64,000 nucleotides of DNA from Planctomycetota bacterium (GTDB taxonomy: Bacteria > Planctomycetota > GCA-002687715 > DRQF01): positions 31,299 through 95,298 of the forward strand of contig JALTLO010000197.1 of the NCBI GenBank assembly GCA_027001995.1, written 5' to 3'. How positions within the stretch are numbered: position 1 is the first letter of the stretch; each line of letters opens with the position of its first letter. Positions 39,348-57,041 of the stretch are shown here, in pieces. The position numbers and the translations under genes are program-made. Under the pieces are notes generated by a model that worked only from the letters and a program-made list of their open reading frames with translations, did no database searches and was not told the DNA's origin.

Positions 39348-40028
39348 CTAGCGCAGGAGATCCAGAAGCTTCAGACATTCTTCGTCGACCGAAGCCAAGG
39401 ATTGAGGATTGTGATATAGCACTTCTTCTCGCAGGGCTCGTTTGAATTCAGCTCTCGCCTTGCGGTATTCCACATGGGCAACATCGGCATCCATGCCAAG
39501 GTCGGCGGCAATCTTTCGAATTGGTAATCCTGAGCCAAATCGCAATTTGAGAATCTCCACCCGGCGCAGGCTATCTTCGCCTTCTAAGGCAGCTTGGGTT
39601 TGGTGCCTTTCACCGGCTCTGGACAACATGGTTTTTGCCCATGCTTTGTCGAATGCTGTGGCGATGCTCTCGTTCTCGGCTTCAACAACGTTGAGAACGG
39701 AATCACCCTGACTTTTTTCGGCAGGGGACTCTCGCCGCTCTTCATAACGTCGCGCGATGTTACGAACGACGGCGAAAAGAAAGCTGCGAAATCGCCCTTG
39801 GCCATTGGCTTCGACCCGAGCCAAGGGGCCTTCTGGTCGGAGGCATTCCAAGAAGACGTCTTGCACGGCGTCGTCATACCATTTCCACATGGGGCCTTGT
39901 CGCCATCGAGCGCTCAAATAGGCGCGAACGATGGATAGGTACTGCCTGGCAAATTCTGAGCGTGCTTCTTCGTCGCCACCCGCGGCTTTCGCGACCATGG
40001 TCCAGCATGTGACATCGCTTTTTGGCAC
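39348..40028 (-). CDS. ECF sigma-70 factor (planctomycete kinase-associated type)
   Basis: TCWTMV, DDAVQDVF, GRFRSFLFAVVRN, FDKAWA, region 4 LPIRKIA; GTG start; stop directly abuts kinase start. Confidence 0.87.
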   Translation of the reverse strand: MPKSDVTCWTMVAKAAGGDEEARSEFARQYLSIVRAYLSARWRQGPMWKWYDDAVQDVFLECLRPEGPLARVEANGQGRFRSFLFAVVRNIARRYEERRESPAEKSQGDSVLNVVEAENESIATAFDKAWAKTMLSRAGERHQTQAALEGEDSLRRVEILKLRFGSGLPIRKIAADLGMDADVAHVEYRKARAEFKRALREEVLYHNPQSLASVDEECLKLLDLLR

Positions 40029-40413
40029 CGGAGTCTCCGAAAGTTACGTTCTTTGTCTTTTGCCTCAACTCGGATGGGATCTGTGAACCTCATGGGACCG
40101 GAAATCCGCCCTGAATTCGGCAACTCTCATAAGTTTAGCTTGCCATGCGGACGACAGCGAGCCATGGGAAAGAACTTTTTCTTTCGGTCTTTTCTCCGTG
40201 AGATCGAGCCCAATTCAAGAAAAATTAGAATTCCATTTCGAAAACGCAATCAGAGCGGATGAGTCTTTGTTGTTGGAGTTTGCACCATTCTTCGGCCCTC
40301 CAGCCGACTTTTGGCCTTTGCCAGGGTGGAAACAGCCCGTTTGTCGTCGATAAGCCGAGACCTCCCAGGCACGGGGTGGTCAAGGGCGCACTTATCTGGG
40401 AAATGGGCATAGG

Positions 40414-40455
40414 AGCCCAGTGATACCTCGATGGAGGTTTCACTGGGCTTTTTTT
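40414..40455 (+). terminator. Intrinsic terminator-like hairpin with no annotated upstream + strand gene
   Basis: AGCCCAGTGA-T-ACCTC-GATG-GAGGT-T-TCACTGGGCT followed by a T run. Confidence 0.7.
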
Positions 40456-40666
40456 CGCTCTTTCCCACTGCAAAAACCCCCCAATGACCCAGAATGGATT
40501 AGGTCAGGGCTTGTTCCTGAGATGGTGGCATTCCAAAGATATTTCTTGACAGGGCATGGAGTCAAAGATGGGGAAGACGGCCCCGGCGGGGGCGAGAAAG
40601 TGAATAATTCGTTTCGGTGGGATTCTTCTATGGACATGGGCGTGGTGGGTCCTCGATAATTGGGCC

Positions 40667-43537
40667 ATGAATGAGGAATCACAACACGAGAATCTGGTGC
40701 GCCAGACAGTCCGTCAGTTGAGAAATCTCTCTCTTAGAGCTGAAAGACGGGAGGTTTTGGACGTACTCCGCTTGGCAGACGAGGCGGCCTATTCTGAGGT
40801 TATGGAACTCATGCGTTTGGACCCCACTCTTCAGTTGGGCTCAGCCCACTCCCATGCTGACAATCTGAGTGATTTGACCTTTGTTGGCGAAAAGGTAGAG
40901 GATGATGGGGGCGTCGGGGTCCTTCCTGCAGCGATGCCTCAGACTCAGGTGGGGGAGTTTCGCATCATCAGGCAGATTGGTACCGGTGGCATGGGGCTGG
41001 TCTATGAAGCAGAGCAAGAAAATCCGAATCGCCGGGTTGCCCTGAAAGTGATGCGTGCGGATTTGATGAGCGAGGGTCTCCGAGAGCGATTTCAGTTCGA
41101 GGCGGAGATCTTGGGGCGCTTAGATCATCCAAATATTGCCAGAATCTTCGCCAGTGGATGGCAGGAAACAGCCGTCGGTAAGCAGCCTTGGTTCGCTATG
41201 GAATTAGTCGCAGGTTTGAGCATTCTGGCCTATGTCCAGGAAGAGAATCTGAGCTTGGAAGAGAAGGTTGCCCTATTTTTGGGGGTGATTGAAGGGGTTC
41301 ATGGGGCTCATCAAAGAGGCGTTATACATCGAGATTTGAAACCAGCGAATGTGATGGTCAATGACGAAGGCCGGGTAAAGGTCTTGGATTTCGGACTTGC
41401 CAAGCTGGCAGATTCCACGATGGATGCCATGAAGACCCAGACCGGGCAATTGGTGGGCACTCTCAACTATATGAGCCCAGAGCAGGCCGGAGGGGATTCT
41501 GATGAACTCGATGTTCGAACCGATGTCTACTCTCTCGGTTGTGTACTCTATGAACTTCTGAGTGGTGAAGTCCCGGTGGACACCCGGGGCCAAAACCTGA
41601 CCAGGTCGATTGTCGAGATTCAAGAGAAGACTCCAGTTGAACTCGGTATCATCAACCCGGCATGTCGCGGCGATCTGGCACTCATTGTGAGCAAGGCCAT
41701 CGCTAAGGACAAAGAAATGCGCTACGGATCGGCCGCCGCCTTGGGAGATGATCTCCGTCGATTCTTGGCCAATGAAGCGATCGTCGCTAGGCCTCCTTCC
41801 GCGTGGTATCAGCTCAGGAAACTGGGGCAAAGAAATCGCGTGGCGTTTCTTGCGGTTGCGGGCGTGTTAGTTGCGATCATTGTTGGGGGTGTCGTATCGT
41901 TGAAGTTTGCTGTGGAGGCGGAAGAACACGCCCGGATCGCCGAGAGCGAAAAACAGCGGGCGGAGATGGAGTCAAGGAAGCGACTCCGCTTGGCAGAAGA
42001 GGCGAGGCGAGAATCAGAAAGAGCGGAGGCTGAGGCGAAGGCTCGACTTAAGGCAACAGAAAGATCGAATCGATACTCCCAATTCATCATCGAGACGTTT
42101 GCCAATATCGATCCCAATATTGCCAGGGGAAAGGAGATTTCTCTGCGTCAGGCCATGCAGGAAGTGGAGGCAAAATTCGAAAAGAGTCTGGGCGATGATC
42201 CTGAGAGTCTAGCGCGCTTACATGGTTTTTTTGCCACTATGAGTGAAAGTCTTGGTGATCCAGAGGGGGCTCTTGATCACGCGAAGAAAGCGGCCGGCCT
42301 TCTGGAGCGTTTTCCCCAAGAGACAAGAATTCTTGCCCAAGTGGAGAAAATCTGGGCTTTGAGTTTGGCGAGGCTGGGGCATGTTGAAGAGGCGGAGTTT
42401 CATTTGAATCGGGTTGAAGAAATCCTGAAGGCTGATGGCCTGGAAGAGGGGACGATGGCAGCTACCCTCTTGGCGGACAAGGCGGAACTCTATGAGCGAA
42501 TGGGGCGCTACAAAGACGGCCTTTCTCTTGCGGATAGAGCCCTTGCTCTCCGCTTGAAGATTTTCGGGCCCGATCATGAAGATGTCATCATGAGTCGATT
42601 TATCCGAGCGTCGATCTTAACGGCTATGGAGAACTTCGACTTGGCTAAGGAAGAGGCGACTCGTTGTCTTGAATATCGTGCAGCAAACTTGCCGAGGAAT
42701 CATCCCTTGGTGGCCGAGGCGCACAATCTCATGGCCCGTATTGCGGTGGGGCGGGGAGAAATTCAGTCTTCGATTGAGCACACTCAAGCAGCCATTGCCA
42801 TCCAGAAGATTGTCTTTCCTGAAGGTGGCAGACCACTCCGAGCGAATCTCATGAACTTGGGGTTTCTTTATATGCAAGAGGGGAAGCTCGAGCTCGCCAG
42901 GGAAACTTTGAAAGCGGCATTGCACGCTTACGAGACCTCTGATGGTCAACAAGATCCAGTGGGGTTTTCCGTCTGTTACATCACTCTCTCGGATATCTAT
43001 GACCAGCAAGGGGAATTGGGATTGGCTTTGGATGCCATTTCTCAGGCGGTGGCCTTGCTTCAGTCTCACCCTGGAGTGGCCCCCATCAATTTGGCTCACG
43101 CGCTTAGTCGCAAAGGATCATACTTGTCCGCTAAGGAGTCGGAACCGCTCTACCGACAGGCTCGGGACTTGTTCAGGAAGTCGGAATCGAGGACATCGCC
43201 CAATGCCTTGACAGCGTCTCGTCACCTCACGGCTGCTCTCATGAAGCAGGAGAAGTTCATAGAATGCCGCGACCTCTTAGAGGAGTTGCGAACTGAAATT
43301 GACAGTGCCAAGAACATCCCATTTCGGGAACGCATGGCAATTCATGTCAATCTTGGACTTACCTATGACAAACTGAAAATGTTTGCCAAGGCCGAAGAGT
43401 CTCTCCTCTATATTTACCGGCTTTGCCAAGAAGCTGGCCCACCCGCAGCCAGATCTTTGGCCGCGGTGAAGAAGAACCTCTTCGATTTCTACAGACGCTT
43501 GGGCAAGAAAGAAAAAGCAGCCAATTTCAAACCCTGA
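40667..43537 (+). CDS. Membrane Ser/Thr protein kinase with TPR repeats
   Basis: IGTGGMGLVY, VALK, HRDLKPAN, DFGLAK, GTLNYMSPE, DVYSLG; TM, coiled coil, TPR units (IFGPDHED, RNHPLVA). Confidence 0.94.
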   Translation: MNEESQHENLVRQTVRQLRNLSLRAERREVLDVLRLADEAAYSEVMELMRLDPTLQLGSAHSHADNLSDLTFVGEKVEDDGGVGVLPAAMPQTQVGEFRIIRQIGTGGMGLVYEAEQENPNRRVALKVMRADLMSEGLRERFQFEAEILGRLDHPNIARIFASGWQETAVGKQPWFAMELVAGLSILAYVQEENLSLEEKVALFLGVIEGVHGAHQRGVIHRDLKPANVMVNDEGRVKVLDFGLAKLADSTMDAMKTQTGQLVGTLNYMSPEQAGGDSDELDVRTDVYSLGCVLYELLSGEVPVDTRGQNLTRSIVEIQEKTPVELGIINPACRGDLALIVSKAIAKDKEMRYGSAAALGDDLRRFLANEAIVARPPSAWYQLRKLGQRNRVAFLAVAGVLVAIIVGGVVSLKFAVEAEEHARIAESEKQRAEMESRKRLRLAEEARRESERAEAEAKARLKATERSNRYSQFIIETFANIDPNIARGKEISLRQAMQEVEAKFEKSLGDDPESLARLHGFFATMSESLGDPEGALDHAKKAAGLLERFPQETRILAQVEKIWALSLARLGHVEEAEFHLNRVEEILKADGLEEGTMAATLLADKAELYERMGRYKDGLSLADRALALRLKIFGPDHEDVIMSRFIRASILTAMENFDLAKEEATRCLEYRAANLPRNHPLVAEAHNLMARIAVGRGEIQSSIEHTQAAIAIQKIVFPEGGRPLRANLMNLGFLYMQEGKLELARETLKAALHAYETSDGQQDPVGFSVCYITLSDIYDQQGELGLALDAISQAVALLQSHPGVAPINLAHALSRKGSYLSAKESEPLYRQARDLFRKSESRTSPNALTASRHLTAALMKQEKFIECRDLLEELRTEIDSAKNIPFRERMAIHVNLGLTYDKLKMFAKAEESLLYIYRLCQEAGPPAARSLAAVKKNLFDFYRRLGKKEKAANFKP

Positions 43538-43597: not shown

Positions 43598-46024
43598 TCA
43601 TATCGTTTTTTCCCGTTGGGGCAAGGTGCGGATCATGAGGAAGGGAATGATGAGGATGACTGCGCCTACCACATAGGGGCTTGCATAGCTGAATCGCCAA
43701 TAGAGGAGTCCCCCCAGGACAGGACCAACAGTTCGCCCCAAAGCACCGATAGAGCGATAGACACCGATGATCCGACCTTGCTCGTGTTCCGGAGCATAGA
43801 AGGAAACCAAGGACGTGAGACAAGGGATGACCATGGCAGAACCGGTGGCCATGAGGCTAAGCCCGACATAGAGCAAAAAGACGCTTCCCAAGTTGCCGGC
43901 CATGGCAATCAAAATGAGCCCAGGGATGAGAATCTTGAGCCCCTTTTGGGTGACGACTGATTCACCGATCAATGCTGCCTTTCGTCTGACGTAACCTCCT
44001 TGTACCATCGATAGGACGACACCAATGAACACGAAAAGCATGCCGTTTTCTGCCGCGCTGTAGTCCAGCTTTTCGAACGTCAAGAAGGTCAGCATGTTTT
44101 CGGCGGCACCAAAAGCCGAAAGGAAAATGAAATTGACCCAAACGACGGCAGATACCCCAGGATAGCTTTCCATGTGGAAGAGCTTGATGGGGTTGATGGT
44201 GCGATAGAGTTTACCTTTGCCTCGTTTCTCGGGAGGAAGAGTCTCTGGGAATTTTCTCAGGACGAAAACAAAGTTCCAGACGCAAAGGAGAAAAGCGATC
44301 AGAGCCGGAGCAGAGAAGGGGTTGATACCCCAATCGGAGCCTCCACTGAGCCACTGGTGAAGAGGAATAAATGCGGCGCTAAGTCCGCCAATTGCCGGCC
44401 CCAAGATGAATCCGAGACCAAAGGCAATGCCAATGATGGCCATACCTTTGGAGCGAGTTTGCTCGGTGGTGGTATCAGAAACCGCTGCAGTGGCTGTTGT
44501 GATATTGCTGCCCATGAGACCGGAGAGCAAACGTGAAATGACGAGCAGCAAGAAGCTGCCAGAAAACACCCAAATCAAATAGGCCACAGCATTGCCGAGA
44601 ATCGAGAAGAGCAAGATGGGGCGGCGACCGACGCGGTCGGACACAGCTCCAAAGACTGGAGCCATGGCGAATTGAAGAAAGGAGTAGAGGAAGACTAAGA
44701 GTCCGCCGAATAGGGCCATAGTGGCTTTTGGGTTGTCTGAACCTCCGGTGATGCCCCGAATTCCTTCCATGAGGGCACCGAACAGACCGGTCTCACCTTC
44801 TATGGCATTGTAGTAGTTGAGCATCTCTGGGAAGAGGGGAAACATGATGGAGAAACCGATGAGATCGATGAACAAAGTCAGGAACATCGTTTTCAGAACA
44901 CTTCGGTCTTTGGGTGAAAGGGCTCCGTCAGGATACTTGTCTAACCCAAGGTAGGGGCATGTCTCGCATTGCTTGGGGGCGTGGCAACACCCCTGTTCGG
45001 GAACTTCAATGGGACAAGCACGGGGAATCGGGAGTTCTGGGGAAGTAGGTGTTGCTGAAGTAGACTCATCCTGAGGTAACATGACATCTTTGGCAAAGTC
45101 CTGTGCCCAATCCTCATCGTCATTGAGGCATCTCACCACATGGAACTCGCTCCCACCATGTCTCAAGAATATCTCTCTCAGGCCGATACCTACCTCTTCT
45201 TGGGTTTCTAAATTGTCGACCACGAATGCTGGGCAAACCACGGTGATTTTCTTGACCCCATTTTGGGCCATCTGGATGATTGTCTCTTCCGTACTTGGTG
45301 CTAACCAAGGTTCCCGACCGAATCTTGACTGGAAGGTGAGGTGAGTGTGTTTCGGATTGTGCTTGGTTCCCTGTGCTAAGAGGGTGGCGGTTTCGACGCA
45401 TTGATCGAAGTAGGGGTCGCCTCCTCGGATGCGGCGGATGGGATAGCCATGAAAAGAGAAGAGCAATTCTTCAGGAGGATCCGCTTCGAGGCTCTCGTTG
45501 ATCTTCTGGACTGTGTTGTTGATATAGGCCGGACTCTTGTGGAAGTTCTCGACAAAGGTGATCTCCATTGGCCCTATTTCTCTCAGCGCCTTGTCGAGGG
45601 CATCTCTGCAAGAAAGTGTGGTGGCTTCGCAAAACTGAGGAAACATGGGAATCACCCGGACATGCTCGCAACCCCTGTCCTTTAGTTCTCTCAGTTGTGA
45701 GGTGACGGAAGGGGGGCTGAGAATGTAGGAGAAGGCTAGTTCTATTTGCGTTCCATCAATGTGGGTTTGAAGCTTCTCAACAAATGATTCCGTAAACTGA
45801 AACAGCGGAAAGGTGGAGCCAGTCCAAATGCTTCTGTAGGCCGCGGCCGATTTGGGGGAGCGAGAAGGGAGGATGAAGAGGTTCAGCACCAGTTTCCACA
45901 CCAAATCTTGTTTGTCGACCACACGGGGGTCGCCAAGAAATTCTCGGAGGTATTCCTTCACATCGCTGACTTGGGGGCTTTTGGGAGAGCCCAATTGAAT
46001 CAAGAGAATACCGAGTTTCTTCAT
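43598..46024 (-). CDS. hemH: Ferrochelatase fused to DHA1/TetA-like MFS transporter
   Basis: N-half LGSPKSP, FLGDPRVV, FSFHGYP, FQSRFGREPWL, DNLETQEE; Cys-rich linker; C-half MFS motif A GAVSDRVGRRP and motif C GFILGPAIGG, about 12 TM; one uninterrupted 808-aa frame. Confidence 0.88.
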   Translation of the reverse strand: MKKLGILLIQLGSPKSPQVSDVKEYLREFLGDPRVVDKQDLVWKLVLNLFILPSRSPKSAAAYRSIWTGSTFPLFQFTESFVEKLQTHIDGTQIELAFSYILSPPSVTSQLRELKDRGCEHVRVIPMFPQFCEATTLSCRDALDKALREIGPMEITFVENFHKSPAYINNTVQKINESLEADPPEELLFSFHGYPIRRIRGGDPYFDQCVETATLLAQGTKHNPKHTHLTFQSRFGREPWLAPSTEETIIQMAQNGVKKITVVCPAFVVDNLETQEEVGIGLREIFLRHGGSEFHVVRCLNDDEDWAQDFAKDVMLPQDESTSATPTSPELPIPRACPIEVPEQGCCHAPKQCETCPYLGLDKYPDGALSPKDRSVLKTMFLTLFIDLIGFSIMFPLFPEMLNYYNAIEGETGLFGALMEGIRGITGGSDNPKATMALFGGLLVFLYSFLQFAMAPVFGAVSDRVGRRPILLFSILGNAVAYLIWVFSGSFLLLVISRLLSGLMGSNITTATAAVSDTTTEQTRSKGMAIIGIAFGLGFILGPAIGGLSAAFIPLHQWLSGGSDWGINPFSAPALIAFLLCVWNFVFVLRKFPETLPPEKRGKGKLYRTINPIKLFHMESYPGVSAVVWVNFIFLSAFGAAENMLTFLTFEKLDYSAAENGMLFVFIGVVLSMVQGGYVRRKAALIGESVVTQKGLKILIPGLILIAMAGNLGSVFLLYVGLSLMATGSAMVIPCLTSLVSFYAPEHEQGRIIGVYRSIGALGRTVGPVLGGLLYWRFSYASPYVVGAVILIIPFLMIRTLPQREKTI

Positions 46025-46105
46025 GTCGCACTCTTATGGTTGTATCTAGTCGCGGGATCTCTTGAAAGGAATCGCTTCCCAGGAATTGAAGAGACATGGG
46101 CACTA

Positions 46106-46525
46106 TCACTTAGAATCACAGGACTTGTTGGTGAGTCCATCCAAGCGCGCATTTGTTAAATGGCCTTTTATCAACTCTTGAAGTTGAACGAAGACCTGTG
46201 TCACCGCACAACCCCCACTGGCAGGACAATTGCCTTCGACTTGAGTCTCACAGACGTTCATGGCCAGAGGACCTTCGAGAGCTTCAAGAATTTGGAGGAG
46301 GTCAATTTCCTTGGCTGGACGTCCCAGAGAATAACCACGCTTGGCTCCTCGATGGGCTTGAACAATACCAAAGCGGGTCAGGGACTGAAGGATGTTTGAT
46401 AAGTAGTTGGCTGGGGCCCCAATTCCTTCAGCGATATCCACCAGAACGACGGGGCAATGCTCACTTTGCTCCGCTAAGAAGACAGTGGCACGAATGGCGT
46501 ATTCCGTGCCGCGATTGATCTGCAT
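46106..46525 (-). CDS. Rrf2 family Fe-S transcriptional regulator (NsrR/IscR-like)
   Basis: TEYAIRA, YLSNILQSL, RGAKRGYSL, ILEALEG, three Cys (C..C.....C) in the C-terminal part. Confidence 0.92.
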   Translation of the reverse strand: MQINRGTEYAIRATVFLAEQSEHCPVVLVDIAEGIGAPANYLSNILQSLTRFGIVQAHRGAKRGYSLGRPAKEIDLLQILEALEGPLAMNVCETQVEGNCPASGGCAVTQVFVQLQELIKGHLTNARLDGLTNKSCDSK

Positions 46526-46604
46526 GGGTAATTCCTTTCAGTCCCAACCTGACCCTGAGGTCTTCTCATTCATTTTGTTGGCAAATCTCTGACTTTCAAG
46601 ATAT

Positions 46605-46633
46605 AGTCACTCAACTCACTCACTTGAGTGACT
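46605..46633. promoter_or_regulatory. Perfect inverted repeat, probable Rrf2 operator in the divergent promoter
   Basis: AGTCACTCAA-N9-TTGAGTGACT between the divergent rrf2 and nod-like starts. Confidence 0.65.
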
Positions 46634-46672
46634 TTGACAACTTGATCCTTCCTAAACCCTCGGAGTTAGCTC

Positions 46673-49060
46673 ATGAACCTCATGTCGTGGATAGACAAAC
46701 GTCAGCAATGGTGGAAGGTCTTTGTCATCATCTTCACCATCAGCATCAGTGTCGTGGGATATATTGGTTATCAGACTTACGAATATGCTCCCCCTCTCGC
46801 TGATTTCCGCTCCGACACCGGTGAGCTTGTTTTTTCTGGCAAAGCCATCACGGATGGTCAACAAATCTTTCTGCGTTATGGGCTTATGGACTATGGAACT
46901 TTCTTAGGCGACGGAGCACTTCGGGGCCCAGATTTCACGGCGGAGGCTCTTAATCGCGCAGCCAAGGCGATGAACAAGTTTCATGAGGCTGAGTGGTTGG
47001 AGAAGATGCCTGACGAGGAGAATCGAAAGGTCATTGTTCAATCACTTGTGCAGGCTGAGATCAAAGAAAACCGCTACGACGAAGTCAGCAACACAGTGAC
47101 TCTGACGAAGGCTCAGGTTGCGGCCTGGGAGGACTTGCTTCAATTTAATACTGAGAGGTTTGCCGAGGGCGGTCCTTTGGCGGGCAAGGAAGCCTTTAAG
47201 CCGGAAAACTACATCACTGACCCACAAGAAATCGCGGATCTCACGGCTTTCTTCTTTTGGGGTGGGTGGCTCTGCGGGGCGGAGCGGCCAGGCTTTGACT
47301 ACAGCTATACCCAGAATTGGCCTTTTGATCCTCTTGCTGGCAACGCTCCCGCTGCGGGGGTGATGTTCTGGAGCGTGATTGGCGGGTTGGTATTGATTCT
47401 ATCCATGGGGCTTGTGTTCTACTTGTACGGCAAGCTCGATCGGGAATCTGTTTTTGAAGCTCAAGAATCCAAGACGCCACCGATGACAACAATCGAGGAC
47501 ATCGATCGGGCGCGCCCGACGCAGACACAACGAGCATGCTACAAATTTATGGCCGTAGCTTCGCTCTTGTTCTTGGTGCAAATTCTCGCGGGACTCATGG
47601 CCATCTCAGATTTCGTCGGGCTCTTCGACAACATCGGTATTGATCTGACGGCCATTTTTCCTGTGACAGTGACCCGGGCATGGCATTCTCAAATTTCTGT
47701 TCTTTGGATTGCTGTTTGTTGGTTTGCTGCTTCTATTTGGGTGTTGCCCCTCATTTGCCGGCCTGAACCCAAGAATCAGTTGGCATGGATTAACGGCTTG
47801 TTTTGGATGCTTGTGATTGTGGCTTTGGGAACTGCCATTGGGATTCCCTTGGGTGTTCACGGCTTTTTCGGTGACATGTGGCGTTGGTTCGGGAATCAAG
47901 GCTGGGAGTTCATGCAGTTGGGTAGAGTGTTTCAATACTTGCTCTACGCCGCTTTTGTCGTCTGGTTTGTCATTGTCTATCGCGGACTGTGGCCAGTGCT
48001 ACGAAGACGAGAAAGTTGGTCTTTGCCGAATTGGATGATCTACTCCATTGCGGGTATCATCTTCATGTTTACTGCTGGCTTCGTGGCGAATACGGATACG
48101 AATTTTGTCATCGCCGATTTTTGGCGTTGGTGCACAATCCACATGTGGGTGGAAGCATTCTTTGAGCTATTTACCACCGTCCTTTTGGCTTACTTCCTCT
48201 ACATCATGGGCTTCGTCAGTCACATGGTGGCGGCACGGGTCGTGTATCTCTCAGCGATCCTCTTCCTTGGTTCGGGTCTCATTGGTATTAGCCACAACTT
48301 CTACTGGAATGCGAAATCTGTTGAGACATTGGCCTTGGGTGGTGTGCTCTCGACCTTGCAAATTACTCCACTTGTGTTGTTGACTGTGGAAGCGTGGAAG
48401 TTCAGGCACATGCCTCAAAGTCGTATCGCGCAAATGAAGAAGAAGAGCGGCAAGGATGCGATCTTTGGGCTTGGGGACGCATTTCTTTTCTTGGTTGGTG
48501 TGAACTTCTGGAATTTCATGGGTGCCGGTGTCCTTGGGTTCATGATCAATTTGCCAATCGTAAATTACTACCAACATGCTACCTACCTCACGGTCAATCA
48601 TGGGCATGCAGCACTCTTTGGTGTTTATGGCAACTTGGCGATTGCATCCATGTTGTTTTGTGGCAGATGGGTCATCAAGCCAGAGAAATGGAATGGACGT
48701 CTGGTGAGGCGCGCATTCTGGTGGCTCAATCTCGGTTTGGTTCTGATGCTTATTATGGACTTGTTCCCAGTTGGCGTTCATCAACTTTGGACTGTGATGG
48801 ATGAAGGCTATGCTTTCGCCCGATCCCAAGATTACATTCATGGCGAGATGTTTCAGCGGTTCACATGGCTGAGAGGTTTTGGCGTGGCCGCCTTTACCTT
48901 TGGCGGAGTCTTGCCCTTGGTGTGGTTCATGGTGACACGGTGGTTCCATTTGAAACCAAGAAGCGAAATCGAAGTGGAACCCTTTGTGGTACCGCCCACT
49001 GTCTTGGCTGTTATGCCTGGGACCAAAGGGGACAAGAATGGGGAGGAACCGGGAGTTTAG
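46673..49060 (+). CDS. nod: qNOR-family nitric oxide reductase homolog with NO dismutase (Nod)-type substitutions
   Basis: qNOR motifs GDGALRGPDFTA, YTQNWPFD, RAWH338, H490MWVE494, NH643GH645; but SH541N542 instead of HH, STLQ563 instead of SALE, quinol-site His/Asp absent. Confidence 0.85.
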   Translation: MNLMSWIDKRQQWWKVFVIIFTISISVVGYIGYQTYEYAPPLADFRSDTGELVFSGKAITDGQQIFLRYGLMDYGTFLGDGALRGPDFTAEALNRAAKAMNKFHEAEWLEKMPDEENRKVIVQSLVQAEIKENRYDEVSNTVTLTKAQVAAWEDLLQFNTERFAEGGPLAGKEAFKPENYITDPQEIADLTAFFFWGGWLCGAERPGFDYSYTQNWPFDPLAGNAPAAGVMFWSVIGGLVLILSMGLVFYLYGKLDRESVFEAQESKTPPMTTIEDIDRARPTQTQRACYKFMAVASLLFLVQILAGLMAISDFVGLFDNIGIDLTAIFPVTVTRAWHSQISVLWIAVCWFAASIWVLPLICRPEPKNQLAWINGLFWMLVIVALGTAIGIPLGVHGFFGDMWRWFGNQGWEFMQLGRVFQYLLYAAFVVWFVIVYRGLWPVLRRRESWSLPNWMIYSIAGIIFMFTAGFVANTDTNFVIADFWRWCTIHMWVEAFFELFTTVLLAYFLYIMGFVSHMVAARVVYLSAILFLGSGLIGISHNFYWNAKSVETLALGGVLSTLQITPLVLLTVEAWKFRHMPQSRIAQMKKKSGKDAIFGLGDAFLFLVGVNFWNFMGAGVLGFMINLPIVNYYQHATYLTVNHGHAALFGVYGNLAIASMLFCGRWVIKPEKWNGRLVRRAFWWLNLGLVLMLIMDLFPVGVHQLWTVMDEGYAFARSQDYIHGEMFQRFTWLRGFGVAAFTFGGVLPLVWFMVTRWFHLKPRSEIEVEPFVVPPTVLAVMPGTKGDKNGEEPGV

Positions 49061-49345
49061 CCCGACTCACCTCAGAGACTTTGGTGCCCCAGCCATGTGG
49101 CCAGGAATTCGGATTGGATGTGGTAAGTGCAAAATACTGCCATGATGTGTCTACTTTTGGATACTCTTGATCTCCGAATTAGGCCACTCGATTGTGCCTG
49201 ACTTTTTACTATTTGTGTCGTTAACCTGTTAAATATCAGTATGTTATGGGTTGTGTTTGATGTTGGCATGGCGTGTGCGAAGGGAAAGGGGATGACAAAA
49301 AGCTGTCGTCGCAATAGTTCCGTTTCTCTCGAAAGGAGACGTTCC

Positions 49346-49729
49346 ATGACGATCAAGACATTCCTCAGCACCGCAGCCTTCGCATTACTTCTCACGGCGC
49401 TTTCCACTCCAGCCAGCGCCCAGAGCTTTGGTGCCAGTTTTGGAGGTCATGACGGTGGATTCAGTATCAGCATCGGGGGCCACGGAGGAGGCTACTACAA
49501 TAGCTACGGTGGGAACTACGGCGGAAGTCATGGCTATTCCTGGAACCGAGGTCACAATTCCTATTCCGGCGGCCACAATTCCTACTATCGCCCCAGCTAC
49601 AACCGCCACTATTCGAGTCGTCCAAGCCACCGCAGGAGTTATCGTTCGCGAAGTCACAGTCGTTCAACGTATCGGCCTCGCCACGGATCCTACCGATCGT
49701 CGTACAATCGTCACGGTCGCAGACACTGA
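49346..49729 (+). CDS. Small secreted Gly/His/Tyr/Arg-rich low-complexity protein
   Basis: AGGAG RBS, signal peptide ending ASA-Q, GHNSY repeats, Arg/Ser/His-rich tail. Confidence 0.78.
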   Translation: MTIKTFLSTAAFALLLTALSTPASAQSFGASFGGHDGGFSISIGGHGGGYYNSYGGNYGGSHGYSWNRGHNSYSGGHNSYYRPSYNRHYSSRPSHRRSYRSRSHSRSTYRPRHGSYRSSYNRHGRRH

Positions 49730-49784
49730 TCTGACCTCAGCCGACTTTCTCTCATTGTAGATTTGGTCCGTGCGCTCAGAAACC

Positions 49785-49827
49785 AAAGCCTCCTTGCACC
49801 TATAATCTTAGGTCAAGGAGGCTTTTC
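49785..49827 (+). terminator. Intrinsic terminator
   Basis: AAAGCCTCCTTG..ACCTA-taatct-TAGGT..CAAGGAGGCTTT-T downstream of 49729. Confidence 0.75.
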
Positions 49828-49956: not shown

Positions 49957-51276
49957 ATGTTTGATGAAACACGGAGGCGATTCGTTGCCGCTTTAGGAAT
50001 GTTTGGGGTGGCCTCTGCGAGTTCCGGAAATCCTCTTTCAGGAGTATCCGGCTCAACCCAAGAAGAGCAGGAAGAAAAACGCAAGAAGAAACAGAAAATG
50101 AAGGGGATGAAGAGTGGCCAGGAACATGGCAAGTCCATGGACACCATGATGAATCCTCTCGAAGATCGTTTTCCGCGCAATGATCCAACAATTGCTCTTT
50201 CGAAGCCGCCCAAGCTTATGGGGCGTCAAATGGGCCGGATCGAGACTCCCGGGATTGAACCACTTGGATTCGAGATGGATGGTTCGGTGAAGGTATTTCA
50301 TCTTATTGCACAACCGGTGGAGAAAGTGATTTCGAGTGGGATGTCTATGTCTCAGGTCGATCAGCGGATGAACATCCCCAAGCCGTTTCAGCGTTTTCGC
50401 CCAAGACCAAGCCAACCGAAGAAAATGGTTTGCTGGGGTTACAACGGAACCACTTGCGGGCCAACTTTGGAGGCGACGGAAGGCGAGCGCGTTCGTATTG
50501 TGTTCAAGAACGAATTGCCAGAACCAACATCGATTCACTGGCACGGGTTTGAAATTCCATTCTCTGAAGATGGTGCCTCGGGATATTTCCCCTTTGAGGC
50601 CCGACGTCCGGTCTTGCCTGGGGAGACAGATGTCTATGAGTTTGACCTCATCCAATCGGGAACGCTCATGTATCACACTGGCTTCAATGTCATGAAGCAG
50701 GAGGGGATGGGAGTCTCTGGCATGTTCGTGATTCACCCGAAGAAGGAAGAGCAACCCCCTGACCATGATTTTGCCATCATGTTGCAGCAGTGGAGCTTTC
50801 GTCCAGGAAATCCGAATCCCGATGTTGTTCCCATGGAGCCGACCTTTGCCACTTTCAATGGTCTCACCGCACCTGATATCCCCATGCTGGAAGTTAAGCA
50901 AGGGGATCGGGTTCGCATTCGATTCGGAAACCTCAGCCTCCTGTATCACCCGATCCACATTCACGGTCACATTTTTGAAATCGTTGGGACCATTGGCGGT
51001 TCGATTCCAAGAGCAGCCCGAATGAGAGAAGCGACGGTCACCATTGGACCAGGAGAGACTCGGGATATCGAATTCGTCGCCTGGAATCCTGGGACCTGGA
51101 GAATGCACTGTCATGTCTTGCATCATCTGATGAACCAGATGGCCGATCAACCTATGGGAATCGCTCCTCCCGAAGGCATGTTCACTCACATGAATGTGCG
51201 TCCCAAAGACCCTGGCTATGATCCAAAAGACCGAAAAGCCAACTGGAGCTATCCACCAAAGGAAGAGAGGATCTAA
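49957..51276 (+). CDS. Two-domain multicopper oxidase-family protein (Tat-exported)
   Basis: TRRRF Tat motif, Met-rich N-terminus, IHWHG, MYHTG, HPIHIHGH, WRMHCHVLHH..M. Confidence 0.9.
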   Translation: MFDETRRRFVAALGMFGVASASSGNPLSGVSGSTQEEQEEKRKKKQKMKGMKSGQEHGKSMDTMMNPLEDRFPRNDPTIALSKPPKLMGRQMGRIETPGIEPLGFEMDGSVKVFHLIAQPVEKVISSGMSMSQVDQRMNIPKPFQRFRPRPSQPKKMVCWGYNGTTCGPTLEATEGERVRIVFKNELPEPTSIHWHGFEIPFSEDGASGYFPFEARRPVLPGETDVYEFDLIQSGTLMYHTGFNVMKQEGMGVSGMFVIHPKKEEQPPDHDFAIMLQQWSFRPGNPNPDVVPMEPTFATFNGLTAPDIPMLEVKQGDRVRIRFGNLSLLYHPIHIHGHIFEIVGTIGGSIPRAARMREATVTIGPGETRDIEFVAWNPGTWRMHCHVLHHLMNQMADQPMGIAPPEGMFTHMNVRPKDPGYDPKDRKANWSYPPKEERI

Positions 51277-51278
51277 CA

Positions 51279-52637
51279 GTGAAGAATCTCAGTTGTTTGA
51301 TTTTGCTCGTCCTGTCCGGGTGCGTGGCCGTCGATCCCGCGCCATCATGGCGTCGTGTTCATGAGCTAAGCGAAGAGCGTATTGACGCCGACACTGTTTG
51401 GATTCGCTCGGACGATGAAGCTCAATTGGTTGAGCAAACCGTTGAGGCGATGTTGAAGGATGGTCTGACCCGGGACGAGAGTCTACGAATAGCAGTCCTT
51501 AAGAACCTTCGACTGCAAGCTCGCTTTAACGATCTCGGCGTGGCCACGGCGGCTGTTGTTGAAGCATCGTTACCAACGAACCCAACACTTGATGGTTGGT
51601 TAGGTCTTCCCGGGCGGTCCGGTGCGAGTTCTTTAGGGTTGGTCGCTTGGCTATCCGACCTTTGGATCATTCCTCAACGAAGCGCCGTTGCTGAACTCAT
51701 GGCACAACGTACAGAATACGTTGTCACGATTGACATCATGAACACGGCGATCCGTGGAGCCTCCTCGTGGGATCGTCTTGTGGCAGCGCAACAAGCATTA
51801 GGCATGACTCAGGAGCTGCTACAGGTGCGTCGAGATCATGCTCAACGGGTTGCCATACGTTTTGCTCATGGGCTTGATGATTCTGCTACCTTAGATGAGG
51901 CTAAAGCTATGGTGGCGGAAGAACAGGTTGCCTTGCAAAAGGCGAAGCAGGATCTGACCCAGGCCCGGACCAATATGTCGGCGATCCTGGCAACTCCTGA
52001 AGTTTGGCGACATGTCCCTTCAAACGCCTCCCTCTCTCCAACTCCGTCTCCAAAAATGCAAGTGAGCGATTCGATCGAATTCGGCATGTCCAACAGGTTG
52101 GACTTGCTTGCTGGGCGGGTAGAGGTCGAGCAAGCGACGCGAGCCGTCGGTTTGGAAGATGCCCTTATCTGGCGATCTGTTTCTCTTGGTACTAACAAGG
52201 AAGGGCAATTCTCTCGGGTCTACGACTCGAATGTTGAGGCTGACGAGTCATTTGGGCCGACGATTTCTATTGAGATACCCATTTTCAATCAGAATCAGGC
52301 TGGGCGAGCTGCTGCATCATTCGAGCTTCAACGGGCAATCAAACTGCTTGATGCGGCTCGGGTGCGGGCAACAAAGGAAATTGTAGATTCTTTTCAGCGC
52401 TATGAAAACTCGAATGAGAGTTTGCGAAATCTGGAAGAAATTGCTCGACCTGCCATTGTGTCTCGGCTCAAGTACATGGAAGAGTGGAACCTGAAAATGC
52501 AGGTGCCATTTCTGGAGGTGCTCGCCGCCCGCGAAAAACTCATAGCTGTAGATATGGAAATCAATATGGTGCGCGAAGAAAGAAACAACAGTTGGCGGGA
52601 GCTTGAGTTCGCAACCAAGGGCGGTGAAAAGCGGTAG
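51279..52637 (+). CDS. TolC-family outer membrane lipoprotein (copper-resistance associated)
   Basis: GTG start, LSG-C lipobox, AVLKNLRLQA, LPTNPTL, IEIPIFNQNQ. Confidence 0.85.
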   Translation: MKNLSCLILLVLSGCVAVDPAPSWRRVHELSEERIDADTVWIRSDDEAQLVEQTVEAMLKDGLTRDESLRIAVLKNLRLQARFNDLGVATAAVVEASLPTNPTLDGWLGLPGRSGASSLGLVAWLSDLWIIPQRSAVAELMAQRTEYVVTIDIMNTAIRGASSWDRLVAAQQALGMTQELLQVRRDHAQRVAIRFAHGLDDSATLDEAKAMVAEEQVALQKAKQDLTQARTNMSAILATPEVWRHVPSNASLSPTPSPKMQVSDSIEFGMSNRLDLLAGRVEVEQATRAVGLEDALIWRSVSLGTNKEGQFSRVYDSNVEADESFGPTISIEIPIFNQNQAGRAAASFELQRAIKLLDAARVRATKEIVDSFQRYENSNESLRNLEEIARPAIVSRLKYMEEWNLKMQVPFLEVLAAREKLIAVDMEINMVREERNNSWRELEFATKGGEKR

Positions 52638-52809
52638 CCAAGGAAAGGCCACCTTCCCCTCCCCGCAGGGCTTCAACTCTATTATTTTCGAGTTGTTCCC
52701 CCGTGGAGATTCACTTCTCTCAATAAGATGCGAATATTTTACCGCCCTCTGTCGTTGGAGTGATGAAGGCAATGCCCTTACAAGTTCTGAAACTCTCAAG
52801 GAAGTTCTG

Positions 52810-53709
<900 letters not shown>

Positions 53710-53714
53710 TCCCC

Positions 53715-55487
53715 ATGTCGAACCGCGTCGCACTCGTCTGTGGTTTTCTGTTCATGCTCGTCGTCACGTCTTCTTGTTTTGGACAAGTGAGTCCAGAGGA
53801 GCATAAGAAGCATCACCCGAAGCAAAATGCTCAAAATGCTGATAGCTCTGAATCTCCGACCAAATCCGGGGGTATGATGGGCGGAGGCGGCATGGGTGGC
53901 ATGATGAAGAAAATGGGGGTGCCACCCCCTAAGGATCTCTATCCTTCGTTGATGGCCATTCGCCATCTGAGCGAAAAGGAACGCAAGAGCTTGGAGTCTG
54001 AAGCTCACGAGCGCATGCGGACCGGTGCTAATCTCTTAGGTCTTGGTTTGAGCGATTTGTCCCGCCTAGCGGCAAGCGATGATTTTCAGAGTATGGAAAA
54101 GGCCGTGGGCGTCATGAAGGAAGGCGTAGCTGAATTCGAAAGTGGCTTGGCAACTCACCGGGCTCTGGTGGAAGGGAAAGTTCCCTCCAAGGTCGCCCTG
54201 CGCTGGTTCAAGGATGAGATGAACTTGGCTACAGTCTCTTCTTCTCCTGATTCGGACGGCCTCTTCGGGTTGAGTTATTTTCATCTGTTTATGATGTCCC
54301 TTCTTACGCTTTTTGCCGTGGCGATGATCGGCATGTACTTCTCTAAGATGAAGAGAGCGAACGAACTTCTATCGCGGTTGTCCAAGGTCCCGGTTCCTCC
54401 TGCTCGAACAGATTCGGAAGAAGGGATGAAGCCGAAATCTCAATCGAGTCAGCCAGTCGCTTGGCCAGAAGAACTCACTGTTGTTGAGAAATTCGACGAA
54501 ACGAAATCGGTGTCAACCTTTCGCCTGGCGGACCACCGCAACTCTTGTCTTGTGTTGCCATTTCTCGCAGGGCAGTTCTTGACTATCGAAGTTGAGATCG
54601 ACGGCAAGAAAGTGCGTCGGAGCTATACCATCTCTTCTTCTCCATCGCGGCCCTATGTAGAGTTGACAGTCAAAAGGGAAGAGCATGGATTGGTCTCCGC
54701 CTATCTCCATAAGACATGGAAGCCGGGGGAGAAAATTCGCGTTTTGCCAGCGAGTGGGCAGTTTACATTCGATAGCGAAAAACATGACAGTATCGTTCTT
54801 GTGTCTGGAGGAGTTGGCGCAACGCCGATGATGAGTGTGGCTCGAGACCTCACAGAGAGATCGTGGACCGGAGAAATCTTTTATGTTCATTGCGCCAAAA
54901 ATCTGGATGACTTGATTTTTCGAGATGAGCTAGAGCAGATGGCTGCACGATTCTCGAATTTTCACTTAATCATCACTTTGACCGGCGAAACTCGTAAGAA
55001 GTGGAAGGGGCGGAAAGGTCGGTTCTCGGCTGAGATGTTCACCGAAGCGATTCCCGACCTTGTCAGTCGACAGGTGCACATCTGCGGGCCGAATCCGATG
55101 ATGGACGCGGTCTCTCAGCTACTCGATGATCTCAAGGTTCCGAAGGATCAGGTCCACAAAGAAGCATTTGGCGCTCCTAAGAAGAAGCAAGAAAAAGAAC
55201 CGAAGGTTTCTGGAAAAGCGAGTGCCGATCCCCGCGTTGAATTTGCTGCCTCGAAAAAGAGCGGCACGATGAAAGGGCATGAAACGGTTTTGGATCTTGC
55301 CGACGCCATTGGCGTTGAGATCGAGAATTCTTGCCGAACTGGAATTTGTGGCGCTTGCAGTGTGAAACTTGTCGCCGGTGAAGTCACCATGGAAGTTGAT
55401 GATGCTTTGTCTGAGGAAGACAAAACTGCTGGCATCATTCTCGCTTGCCAATCTCAACCTAGAACGGATCTGAAAGTCGATGCCTAA
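53715..55487 (+). CDS. Membrane-anchored FAD/NAD(P)H ferredoxin reductase + 2Fe-2S ferredoxin, with His/Met-rich exported N-terminal domain
   Basis: Signal peptide, EEHKKHHP, GGMMGG, one TM, RRSYTISS, GLVSAYL, GGVGATP, CGP, CRTGICGAC..LAC. Confidence 0.88.
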   Translation: MSNRVALVCGFLFMLVVTSSCFGQVSPEEHKKHHPKQNAQNADSSESPTKSGGMMGGGGMGGMMKKMGVPPPKDLYPSLMAIRHLSEKERKSLESEAHERMRTGANLLGLGLSDLSRLAASDDFQSMEKAVGVMKEGVAEFESGLATHRALVEGKVPSKVALRWFKDEMNLATVSSSPDSDGLFGLSYFHLFMMSLLTLFAVAMIGMYFSKMKRANELLSRLSKVPVPPARTDSEEGMKPKSQSSQPVAWPEELTVVEKFDETKSVSTFRLADHRNSCLVLPFLAGQFLTIEVEIDGKKVRRSYTISSSPSRPYVELTVKREEHGLVSAYLHKTWKPGEKIRVLPASGQFTFDSEKHDSIVLVSGGVGATPMMSVARDLTERSWTGEIFYVHCAKNLDDLIFRDELEQMAARFSNFHLIITLTGETRKKWKGRKGRFSAEMFTEAIPDLVSRQVHICGPNPMMDAVSQLLDDLKVPKDQVHKEAFGAPKKKQEKEPKVSGKASADPRVEFAASKKSGTMKGHETVLDLADAIGVEIENSCRTGICGACSVKLVAGEVTMEVDDALSEEDKTAGIILACQSQPRTDLKVDA

Positions 55488-56253
55488 GGATCTAAAGGAA
55501 AGAGAGCGCCTCGTTGTTACCGGCCTCACCGTCATTTTTCTCATCTTGTGGTTGGGTTTCGTTTTTCACCAATCACCGAGATTCGCTGGGAGCCTCCTGG
55601 GGAGTCTCATCGGCATAGTTGGATCCTTGTTGATGCTTGTGCCTCTTGCGTATGTGGCCATCAAGAGAATCAAACGCTTGAAAAAGTTCGTCACTGCCAA
55701 ATTCTCGATGCGTACACTTCTGGCATGGCACATCTATAGTGGGATCTTAGGACCTATTCTGGTCTTGATTCACACGGGGCACAAATTCGAGAGTACTCTT
55801 GGTAGCCTTCTGACTCTGATGACAATTGTTGTGGTGGTGAGTGGTTTCGTTGGGCGCTATCTGATGCGGCAATTGAGCCAAGGTATCAAAGAGAAGAAAA
55901 GCAAACGGAGTGAACTCGAGGCCGCATATGCTGCCAAGGCTCAAACTCTCAGTGCAAGAGGGAGCAGCTCAGGTCGCAGTATTGCGGGGATCTCTAAGTT
56001 TCGCTTTCGGCTAGTGAGTTGGTTCTTTGACAAGGACGATGTTTTGGATCCTGAATTGAGAGCCACTGTTGAGGCCGTTCAAATCTCGGATGCTCTGGCT
56101 GACGTTGAGTATGCTCTGAAGAGTCATGAGATCATCAAAGCCTTCTTTTCTCGGTGGTTGAAGTTTCACATCGCCTTAAGTTTGCTTCTCTATGGATTGT
56201 TAGCTCTTCATGTGGCCAGTGGTTTCTATTTTGGGATGAGGTGGTTGCAATGA
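55480..56253 (+). CDS. Ferric-reductase-like integral membrane protein (putative di-heme b)
   Basis: Several TM helices; two His pairs spaced 14 apart (HIYSGILGPILVLIH, HIALSLLLYGLLALH); overlaps both neighbours. Confidence 0.72.
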   Translation: MPKDLKERERLVVTGLTVIFLILWLGFVFHQSPRFAGSLLGSLIGIVGSLLMLVPLAYVAIKRIKRLKKFVTAKFSMRTLLAWHIYSGILGPILVLIHTGHKFESTLGSLLTLMTIVVVVSGFVGRYLMRQLSQGIKEKKSKRSELEAAYAAKAQTLSARGSSSGRSIAGISKFRFRLVSWFFDKDDVLDPELRATVEAVQISDALADVEYALKSHEIIKAFFSRWLKFHIALSLLLYGLLALHVASGFYFGMRWLQ

Positions 56254-57041
56254 ATTGGACGGCATCCAAACTATTCTTCTTGTCGACAATCAGTGTTGCC
56301 GTCTTTTGGATTGCTGTGCCAAGCGACTCCAAGAGTGAGTTCTTCTTCTCGGTCACCGACCCCGGTCCTATTTCGCCAGCACATCATAGCTTCGCGGATG
56401 ATTGCAACGCTTGCCATGAAGCCTGGCGCGGCGTTGATTCCACAAAGTGTATTCTATGTCACGCGAATGACCGCGATCTATTACAGCGTCAGTCAACGTC
56501 CTTTCATGCTGACATCGGAAACTGCCAAAGTTGTCATCCGCAACATCTATCAGTGAATGGATCATCTTCAGCGATGGATCATGAGGTGCTCGCCCGTGTT
56601 GGCAAGGAACAACTCACTCATATGGTTCACGATGAAACCGCTAAGAGAATGAGCCAGACACTTGATTCTTGGATCACGAGTCCATCGGCGGAATCGCCGT
56701 CATTAGAGGTGGCCGCCGGGGTAACGCCTGTGGAAGCAACTTTGGAATGCTCCGCATGTCATCTGAACGAAGATGTTCATTTCGGTTTGATGGGCAAGAA
56801 CTGTGTTGCCTGCCATAGGACGGAAAAGTGGAGCGTTGATTCTTTCAAACATCCATCTGCCAGTTCGAGAAGTTGTTCTCAGTGCCATCAGGCTCCTCCT
56901 AGTCACTATATGGGGCATTTCAAAATGATCTCAGCAAAGGTAGCTGGCAAGCCTAAGGCAAAGGTACGTCAATGCTTTGCCTGTCATCAGACAAATTCTT
57001 GGATCGACATAAAGGGTGTTGGTCTTTACAAGCATCATTGA
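56250..57041 (+). CDS. Multiheme cytochrome c (7 CxxCH)
   Basis: CNACH, CILCH, CQSCH, CSACH, CVACH, CSQCH, CFACH; N-terminal signal/anchor, PGPISPAH; ATGA overlap. Confidence 0.9.
   Translation: MNWTASKLFFLSTISVAVFWIAVPSDSKSEFFFSVTDPGPISPAHHSFADDCNACHEAWRGVDSTKCILCHANDRDLLQRQSTSFHADIGNCQSCHPQHLSVNGSSSAMDHEVLARVGKEQLTHMVHDETAKRMSQTLDSWITSPSAESPSLEVAAGVTPVEATLECSACHLNEDVHFGLMGKNCVACHRTEKWSVDSFKHPSASSRSCSQCHQAPPSHYMGHFKMISAKVAGKPKAKVRQCFACHQTNSWIDIKGVGLYKHH

Follow-up and report, generated by a model that had tools for sequence, protein, structure and literature searches.

The evidence presented here supports the classification of a planctomycete gene as encoding a protein of the nitric oxide dismutase (NOD) type, a non-canonical member of the quinol-dependent nitric oxide reductase (qNOR) family. 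The gene lies in contig JALTLO010000197.1 of a Planctomycetota bacterium (GenBank assembly GCA_027001995.1), within a stretch of 64,000 nucleotides that is called the window below and to which all coordinates without a locus name refer. It occupies positions 46673–49060 of the forward strand as an open frame of 795 codons, and its product of 795 residues is referred to as P0001. As judged from its residues, P0001 is unable to bind quinol as qNOR does, its metal site is altered, and its catalytic glutamate is gone. Its function can be proposed more tentatively. With a probability of about 40%, P0001 would consume nitric oxide (NO) without quinol, as a likely NO-stress enzyme under the control of an adjacent regulator of the Rrf2 family.

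An altered active site in a qNOR framework

P0001 begins with an N-terminal transmembrane helix, followed by a cytochrome-c-like domain without haem (residues 45–217) and a haem-copper-oxidase core (residues 289–737). In Pfam, the two domains match PF22085 (NorB cytochrome-c-like, 155.6 bits) and PF00115 (COX1, 154.1 bits); a scan of NCBIfam gave no matching model or family. A search of P0001 for the CxxCH motif found none, leaving the periplasmic domain without a haem c motif. The start codon ATG is preceded by GGAG at a distance of 7 nt. The best solved relative is the qNOR of Geobacillus stearothermophilus (3ayf_A, E 3.2e-143), which aligns with P0001 end to end (query residues 18–767 against chain residues 25–774). 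After it come the qNORs of Alcaligenes and Neisseria and then, far more weakly (~1e-23), NorB of the cytochrome-c-dependent reductase (cNOR).

Residue equivalences were counted along the alignment with 3ayf_A. Both ligands of the low-spin haem b are present (Geobacillus H355 and H653 correspond to H338 and H645 in P0001), as are the haem b3 ligand (H651 to H643), two of the three FeB histidines (H508 to H490, H559 to H541) and a glutamate (E512 to E494). Where canonical qNORs have His-His (Geobacillus H559 H560), P0001 has His541 Asn542 (codons CAC AAC, 48293–48298, the Asn codon being 48296–48298). The canonical catalytic Glu (Geobacillus E581) is replaced by Gln563 (codon CAA, 48359–48361). 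The quinol site is changed as well. Its A-H-Y-x-x-E segment reads ISDFVG (I311-S312-D-F-V-G316, 47603–47620), with S312 at the position of Geobacillus H328 and G316 at that of E332, and its Asp (Geobacillus D746) aligns to Val738 (codon 48884–48886). All of these codons lie on the forward strand. The genome also encodes a canonical qNOR paralogue, which has AHYTVE where P0001 has ISDFVG.

The same positions can be followed through an alignment of 121 rows, made up of P0001 and the 120 database homologues that match it best, none of them below 61% identity. Asn542 and Gln563 are present in every row, and so are H338, H490, E494 and H541; H643 and H645 are each found in 120 rows, with one gap. 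Glu412, which we take to align with the Ca-site Glu of Geobacillus qNOR, is also invariant. Position 312 is occupied by S, A, G, I, T, L, V, D, N or M and in none of the 121 rows by His, and position 316 never holds Glu. At position 738 the residue is V in 86 rows, I in 19, A in 8, T in 7 and S in 1, and never Asp. The substituted active-site residues are therefore under selection themselves, while the former quinol site is drifting, its positions varying as they should in an abandoned site.

These residues had been named in the original prediction, made from the letters of the window. It had described the haem and FeB ligands and E494 as kept, and the 3ayf_A alignment and 120 or 121 of the 121 rows agree. 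Asn542 in the place of the third FeB ligand, and Gln563, were read correctly from their codons and are invariant, and the reading of ISDFVG for the quinol-site segment and of Val738 for its Asp holds in the alignment and in the homologues.

Putative NODs are defined, in the sections of Ettwig 2012 (PMC3413370) that deal with the signature, by a qNOR fold without haem c, by the presence of all the histidines but one, by the changes of His to Asn and Glu to Gln, and by the absence of a proper quinol site. The first cluster named there comprises DAMO_2434, DAMO_2437, HdN1 and Muricauda ruestringensis. P0001 has all the defining features that DAMO_2434, DAMO_2437 and HdN1 have, namely the qNOR architecture without haem c, the retained haem and FeB ligands, both substitutions and the lost quinol site. 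With the canonical qNORs (3AYF, Neisseria, Alcaligenes), P0001 shares the two-domain architecture, the haem ligands, two FeB histidines and Glu494. It differs from them in lacking two pairs of features that belong to canonical qNOR (EC 1.7.5.2). The first is the full set of three FeB histidines with the conserved Glu equivalent to Glu581; the second is the quinol-binding His and Asp, which are S312 and V738 here.

The gene is intact, strongly constrained and under purifying selection. Compared with an orthologue from the same genus, P0001 shows 86% amino-acid identity over 616 codons. The rate of nonsynonymous substitution (dN) is 0.109, and because synonymous sites are saturated against this sole close orthologue, dN is reported and dN/dS is not. 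The low dN beside saturated synonymous sites, together with the invariant Asn and Gln, argues that the gene is not decaying. Base composition gives no signal of horizontal transfer (GC content 0.50 at the gene, 0.48–0.54 across the window). Hydrothermal-vent metagenome runs carry DNA of this region, and an expression look-up listed no RNA run as carrying positions 46000–49800.

Place in the NOD family

A search of 1.84 billion cluster representatives returned 3367 matches to P0001 at E <= 0.001. Twenty of the representatives are 680 residues or longer, and two of these have the His-Asn/Gln combination: P0122 (49% identical to P0001) and P0123 (42%). The other 18, at most 38% identical to P0001, are canonical, and all of them have HH at positions 541/542 and E at 563.

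The relatives of P0123 bear the source names Pseudomonadales, Magnetovibrio, Shimia, Rhodobacteraceae, Myxococcota, Acidobacteriota and Nitrospinae, and two are Joint Genome Institute (JGI) proteins named 'nitric oxide dismutase'. Elbon, Stewart and Glass (bioRxiv 10.1101/2023.11.21.568154), in the part concerned with sequence comparison, give identities of 66–75% between the Alpha-type Nod and the Nods of Magnetovibrio, HdN1 and Methylomirabilota. From the source names and these identities, the P0123 supercluster is taken to be the group that holds the original Nods, those of Methylomirabilis.

Nod-like genes can also be found by scanning contigs of one genome per species. At least 80 Nod-like loci were recovered in this way, mostly from Bacteroidota (Saprospiraceae, Allomuricauda, Arenibacter, Mariniradius and others). 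Among the matches listed, 75 of 80 passed a length filter. Of these, 74 are 46–52% identical to P0001 and take in a few records from Planctomycetota, Chromatiales and Acidobacteriota; the remaining one, L040, has an identity of 38.5% and falls in with the P0123 group.

A tree was built with IQ-TREE 'quick' under LG+C20 from 782 columns and 62 hand-chosen rows. They were drawn from the 121 close homologues (13 rows), the 75 loci (16), the P0123 group (15) and the canonical representatives (16), with P0122 and the genome's own canonical paralogue added. Its anchors are source names (Allomuricauda, a Magnetovibrio metagenome-assembled genome (MAG) and the two JGI proteins), M. oxyfera and HdN1 not being among the rows. 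All 45 rows with the Asn/Gln pair fall on one side of a branch of length 0.82, and all 17 canonical rows fall on the other. Support for this branch in the Shimodaira–Hasegawa-like approximate likelihood ratio test (SH-aLRT) is 100. A phylogeny with NOR and Nod relatives had been proposed as a check on the original prediction, and it places P0001 outside canonical qNOR. The classification of the protein as Nod-type, in a planctomycete, is thus borne out by its signature, by the invariance of that signature and by phylogeny; the phylum agrees with the source names that its nearest homologues carry.

Within the Asn/Gln clade, the P0123 group with L040 (16 rows, support 100) is separated from a clade of 29 rows (SH-aLRT 99). 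The latter contains a Bacteroidota group, a second planctomycete group (L036, L079, the Scalindua locus L092 and P0122), and the clade of P0001 itself. The P0001 clade has 13 rows in the tree (support 100) and forms a planctomycete/verrucomicrobial subclade; at identities of 61% or more, it includes one protein named Scalindua. In an approximately unbiased (AU) test, a topology joining the P0001 clade to the P0123 group, a group named after the tree had been seen, was not rejected (p 0.164). The deeper branching order inside the Asn/Gln clade is not firm.

An unbiased comparison of alignment columns identifies the changes that set the P0001 clade apart. Only five positions combine conservation of 88% or more among 17 canonical qNORs with a different, fixed residue in the P0001 clade: 542 (H>N), 563 (E>Q), 547 (G>A), 487 (W>C) and 237 (S>G). 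H542N, E563Q and G547A are common to all 45 Asn/Gln rows. P0001 retains 77 of 89 canonical-conserved positions, and the 12 that it has lost include A311, H312, D738, H542 and E563.

P0001 is 40–44% identical to the proteobacterial Nod group, with 43–44% for the Magnetovibrio-named and JGI-named proteins, 48% identical to Allomuricauda, 48–50% identical to the second planctomycete group, and 31–33% identical to canonical forms, including its own paralogue. The original prediction had equated its pattern with that of the putative Nod of Methylomirabilis and related NOR-like clades. The signature is indeed shared, but the tree puts P0001 in a sister clade, about 43% identical to the clade assigned to DAMO_2434, DAMO_2437 and HdN1 by source names and literature, and thus probably outside the Methylomirabilis-type group, the AU test leaving a union of the two unrejected. 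The Bacteroidota NODs, also described as an 'unknown Nor-related' group (Muricauda ruestringensis), have the same signature, belong to the same 29-row clade and are 46–52% identical to P0001 among the matches listed. They differ in phylum and form a separate, well-supported subclade. They are also described by Elbon et al., where gene neighbourhoods are treated, as lying in operons with other nor genes, and the P0001 gene does not.

P0001 is a further member of a known family that occurs in many phyla; taken alone, it does not represent a novel type of enzyme. In the portion devoted to distribution, Ruff et al. 2024 (PMC11549561) record NOD from 16 phyla and 162 genera, with more than half of all NODs in Bacteroidota, and distinguish four subclades that share at most 40–50% similarity. 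Planctomycetes have been noted before. A cold-seep study (PMC11828985) mentions Nod in MAGs of Planctomycetota UBA1135 and Scalinduaceae. Elbon et al. name a 'Planctomycetia-type Nod', corresponding to operational taxonomic unit (OTU) I of Fuchsman et al. 2017, and their account of it gives about 40% identity to the Alpha-type Nod, low transcription and a lack of informative neighbours. Two planctomycete groups are found here, the P0001 clade and the L036/L079/L092/P0122 group, and the published name may cover either of them.

The gene is patchily distributed. Of two other genomes from the same genus, one has it and the other (G002) has the canonical type only. Nod-like matches (E <= 1e-180) turned up in 25 of 401 genomes sampled across the phylum, and in 10 of the other 24 the identity to P0001 is 66% or more. 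Two NOD-type paralogues, 52% and 45–46% identical to P0001, occur in each of four genomes of one family (f56; G183, G215, G245 and G356; L117–L120 and L127–L130).

A divergent Rrf2 gene and other neighbours

The gene next to that of P0001 is transcribed divergently and encodes a regulator of the Rrf2 family (139 aa, 46106–46525, reverse strand). It matches PF02082 at 99.5 bits and the NCBIfam model rrf2_super at 94.8 bits, and it scores under the cut-off of every named equivalog. Like NsrR, it has a winged-helix domain and three cysteines, Cys92, Cys101 and Cys107, that are predicted to be able to hold an Fe-S cluster.

The two genes are separated by an intergenic region of 147 nt. Within it lies a perfect 10-9-10 inverted repeat, AGTCACTCAA-N9-TTGAGTGACT (29 bp, 46605–46633), which is a predicted Rrf2 operator. 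A promoter-like site on the forward strand, TTGGCA-18-TATAGT (46578–46607), agrees with the consensus at 10 of 12 positions, and its -10 hexamer overlaps the repeat. The site is a consensus match only, and the number of sigma-70-type sites in the region, one of them a good match, is not above that in shuffled sequences. A block of about 45 nt that contains the repeat is almost identical in the same-genus genome, where the flanks have diverged. That genome (L140) keeps the divergent pair of nod and Rrf2 genes.

A gap of 81 nt separates the Rrf2 gene from the next one on the reverse strand, which encodes a ferrochelatase fused to a transporter of the major facilitator superfamily (MFS) (808 aa, 43598–46024). 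Its hemH match of 251.9 bits is over the equivalog cut-off, and its MFS part has 12 transmembrane helices. It is possibly co-regulated with the Rrf2 gene; in L140 the ferrochelatase gene is missing.

Rrf2 genes accompany other members of the family. Among the matches listed in the Bacteroidota-rich scan, an Rrf2 homologue lies at most 4 kb from the Nod-like gene in 42 of 80 loci, which are kin and not independent of one another. The count fits what Elbon et al. say in section 5, where an NsrR-type inference is drawn for Alpha-type and Bacteroidota nod genes.

Closer to P0001, ten loci of its clade were fetched with 14-kb surroundings, nine of them from more distant members, and 72 of 73 picked open reading frames (ORFs) were scanned. 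Directly upstream of the NOD-type gene, L133 has an activator with GAF and sigma-54 domains (the NorR-type architecture), and L134 has a gene of the RIC/YtfE type with ScdA_N and hemerythrin domains. In L131, a sigma-54 response regulator, a kinase and a nitroreductase are found nearby. A neighbourhood conserved across the clade was considered and rejected: no gene is shared among the ten loci except the Rrf2 gene of the same genus. The published Planctomycetia-type Nod, compared by description, likewise has inconsistent gene neighbourhoods. In contrast to the P0001 clade, where the Rrf2 gene (in this genus), the NorR-type activator and the RIC-type gene stand beside three members, no functionally related neighbours are reported for it in the published account.

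Downstream of the P0001 gene, an ORF of 162 aa (49241–49729, forward strand) has a hydrophobic N-terminal stretch and a low-complexity body rich in Gly, Ser, Tyr, Arg and His; it matches no family and has no homologue in any fetched locus. It is followed by a copper-handling cluster (49957–61786, forward strand). The members of this cluster are a two-domain multicopper oxidase, an outer-membrane efflux factor, a 368-aa ORF without a family, a 590-aa FAD/NAD/2Fe-2S reductase whose N-terminal part of 250 aa matches no family, a 257-aa ORF without a family, an MtrC/MtrF-like ORF and two P-type ATPases, one of them with YHS and HMBD domains. The multicopper oxidase (49957–51276) was considered as an adjacent nirK and rejected, as it scores 42.5 bits against the TIGR02376 cut-off of 296.3 and lies inside the copper-export cluster.

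On the other side, positions 36351–43537 hold genes for Ser/Thr protein kinases (998 aa, and 956 aa with tetratricopeptide repeats) around a gene for an extracytoplasmic function (ECF) sigma factor (39348–40028). Ser/Thr kinases also occur near the NOD-type gene in four other members of the clade (L132, L135, L136 and L139). Farther away, two adjacent ORFs on the reverse strand (31172–33889) would make up one FdhA-like molybdopterin enzyme of 905 aa if an in-frame TGA were read as selenocysteine (U361, in CSRAUH); it has N-terminal 2Fe-2S and 4Fe-4S motifs. In L132, which comes from a genome of the same taxonomic order (G021), three large ORFs with the middle domain of hydrazine synthase alpha (PF18582) flank the NOD-type gene (L132:226–5377 and L132:10626–14327).

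Possible functions

The genome (5.22 Mb in 204 contigs, 92% complete) holds several genes that could supply or use NO and oxygen. It encodes NarG (1485 bits), a Nap-like molybdoenzyme that adjoins one of two Hao-type multihaem ORFs, and oxidases of the A-type, cbb3-like and cytochrome bd kinds. In its canonical qNOR paralogue (L002:1405–3795), all three features are intact, including the quinol-site H, E and D. The check for nirS and nirK that had been suggested with the original prediction turned up no nirS in this 92%-complete genome and, for nirK, nothing above the cut-off (best 25 bits); nrfA was not found in it either. A search of the genome for nosZ with PF18764 was blank, TIGR04246 gave only 25–34-bit matches, and pmoA (PF02461) was not found. 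The nosZ and pmoA blanks carry little weight because PF18764 and PF02461 rang in no control genome. A fifth, very divergent protein of the haem-copper superfamily is encoded on contig C193 (L008:686–2883; 477 aa, COX1 55 bits). It has no PDB relative at E <= 0.001, and its gene follows that of a dihaem cytochrome c with an overlap of 4 nt.

The original prediction had offered either oxygen production or quinol-independent NO detoxification. Detoxification is favoured here over a supply of oxygen for oxygenases because an Rrf2 gene lies next door and nirK, nirS and pmoA were not found; the oxygen-supply half of that proposal is less favoured. An accessory role in scavenging NO also fits better than a core respiratory one, since stress-type regulators and an Fe-S repair protein recur beside members of the family, there is no dedicated NO-forming nitrite reductase, and the distribution is patchy.

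A mechanism for such an NO-stress enzyme can be proposed. The Rrf2 protein, presumably with an Fe-S cluster on Cys92, Cys101 and Cys107, would sit on the 10-9-10 repeat over the -10/+1 region. NO would damage the cluster, and Rrf2 would be released from the repeat. P0001 would then bind two NO molecules at its haem b3/non-haem-metal centre and rearrange them, without electrons from outside, to N2 and O2 or to N2O and O2. Such an electron-neutral rearrangement is the simplest chemistry because there is no quinol entry and the proton path is blunted by the change of Glu to Gln. If O2 is formed, the cbb3-like, bd or A-type oxidases of the same cell would consume it. As sources of the NO, nitrate and nitrite turnover within the cell (NarG, the Nap-like enzyme and the Hao-type multihaem proteins) or denitrifiers in the surroundings would come into question.

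A number of observations weigh against this reading. The retention of a canonical qNOR alongside P0001 is without explanation. The Rrf2 protein fails the NsrR equivalog NF008240 (47.6 bits against a cut-off of 182), and its best PDB relatives are RsrR, IscR and NsrR alike, all weak, with RsrR and IscR above NsrR, so that by score it is not assignable to any of the three. Because the ferrochelatase-MFS fusion follows on the same strand, it could instead be a haem or iron regulator. The footprint of the repeat comes from two sequences of one genus, and the neighbourhoods of the nine more distant clade members are not conserved, six of the nine being without an NO-related neighbour. In addition, Ruff et al. 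2024, where the biochemistry of the family is discussed, state that no NOD has been characterised biochemically or structurally, which leaves the chemistry a hypothesis.

The main alternative, which is possible though somewhat unlikely, is that P0001 is an N2O-forming NO reductase with an electron donor other than quinol, such as a soluble or membrane cytochrome or another carrier, for use in detoxification or respiration. The low-spin haem b ligands, H338 in 121 and H645 in 120 of the 121 rows, are unexplained if no electrons pass, and their retention suggests that electron transfer still matters. The invariance of Glu494 and of Glu412, which we take to be at the Ca site, points the same way. 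Candidate donors are seen elsewhere in the family, since ferredoxin and cytochrome b561 genes adjoin the Gamma-type nod in the neighbourhoods that Elbon et al. describe. Fuchsman et al. 2017, in their treatment of an oxygen-deficient zone dominated by qnorB-like genes and with scarce canonical nor, argue from N2O profiles that these genes may still make N2O. On the other hand, no donor gene adjoins the P0001 copy, its periplasmic domain is without CxxCH, and the genome already has a canonical qNOR. Ettwig 2012, in the discussion of the signature, argues that it compromises NO reductase function, and cites mutant work that implicates the position of the Glu-to-Gln change in cNOR catalysis.

Oxygen may also be the point of the reaction. 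In one version, which we regard as improbable, the vent planctomycete makes its own oxygen: NO from Nar and Nap/Hao would induce, via Rrf2, a true NO dismutase, and its O2 would be respired by the cbb3-like and bd oxidases. In another, less probable still, P0001 is a respiratory oxygen generator in the manner of Methylomirabilis, which would dismutate NO derived from nitrite and supply O2 to oxygen-dependent metabolism under anoxia. The active-site signature is the same as that of the proteins proposed for this role, the genome has nitrate reductases as well as high-affinity oxidases to which the O2 could go, and the DNA is carried by hydrothermal-vent metagenome runs. Standing against such a generator are the lack of nirK and nirS in the 92%-complete genome, the weak blank for pmoA, the family of the adjacent regulator, which is one of stress sensors and not part of a respiratory operon, and the patchiness of the gene even within the genus and across the phylum (25 of 401 genomes). 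No methane or alkane physiology is indicated for this genome, in contrast to M. oxyfera and HdN1.

It is very improbable that P0001 has ceased to turn over NO and serves as a sensor of NO or O2 or as a buffer that binds gas, or persists as a haem-binding relic: a metal ligand, the catalytic Glu and the electron entry site have all been lost together, but the constraint on the gene is strong (Asn and Gln in 121 of 121 rows, dN 0.109 with saturated synonymous sites, 77 of 89 canonical positions kept), and members of the family are among the most abundant proteins of M. oxyfera according to Ettwig 2012.

NOD-type enzymes have been proposed to account for dark oxygen and for N2 that arises without N2O. 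In the part of Ruff et al. 2024 that looks ahead, the characterisation of one member per NOD subclade is called for, none having been purified by then; a literature search of limited coverage likewise found no purified or heterologously expressed NOD. What is added here to the picture of the family is small: a candidate unit of Rrf2 gene and operator in this genus, and neighbours related to NO stress beside two further planctomycete members.

P0001 is nevertheless useful for testing, as the canonical qNOR paralogue in the same genome provides a built-in comparison, and the compact candidate regulatory unit, an Rrf2 gene with a 29-bp repeat, is directly testable. If the improbable case of a planctomycete making its own oxygen were true, it would amount to stress-triggered micro-aerobic respiration without methane or alkane oxidation, a role new to the planctomycete NOD subclade. 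Should the Rrf2 protein prove to be NO-sensing, it would lend support to the idea that NOD genes outside Methylomirabilis mostly serve against NO stress, which in turn matters for the reading of nod counts in metagenomes.

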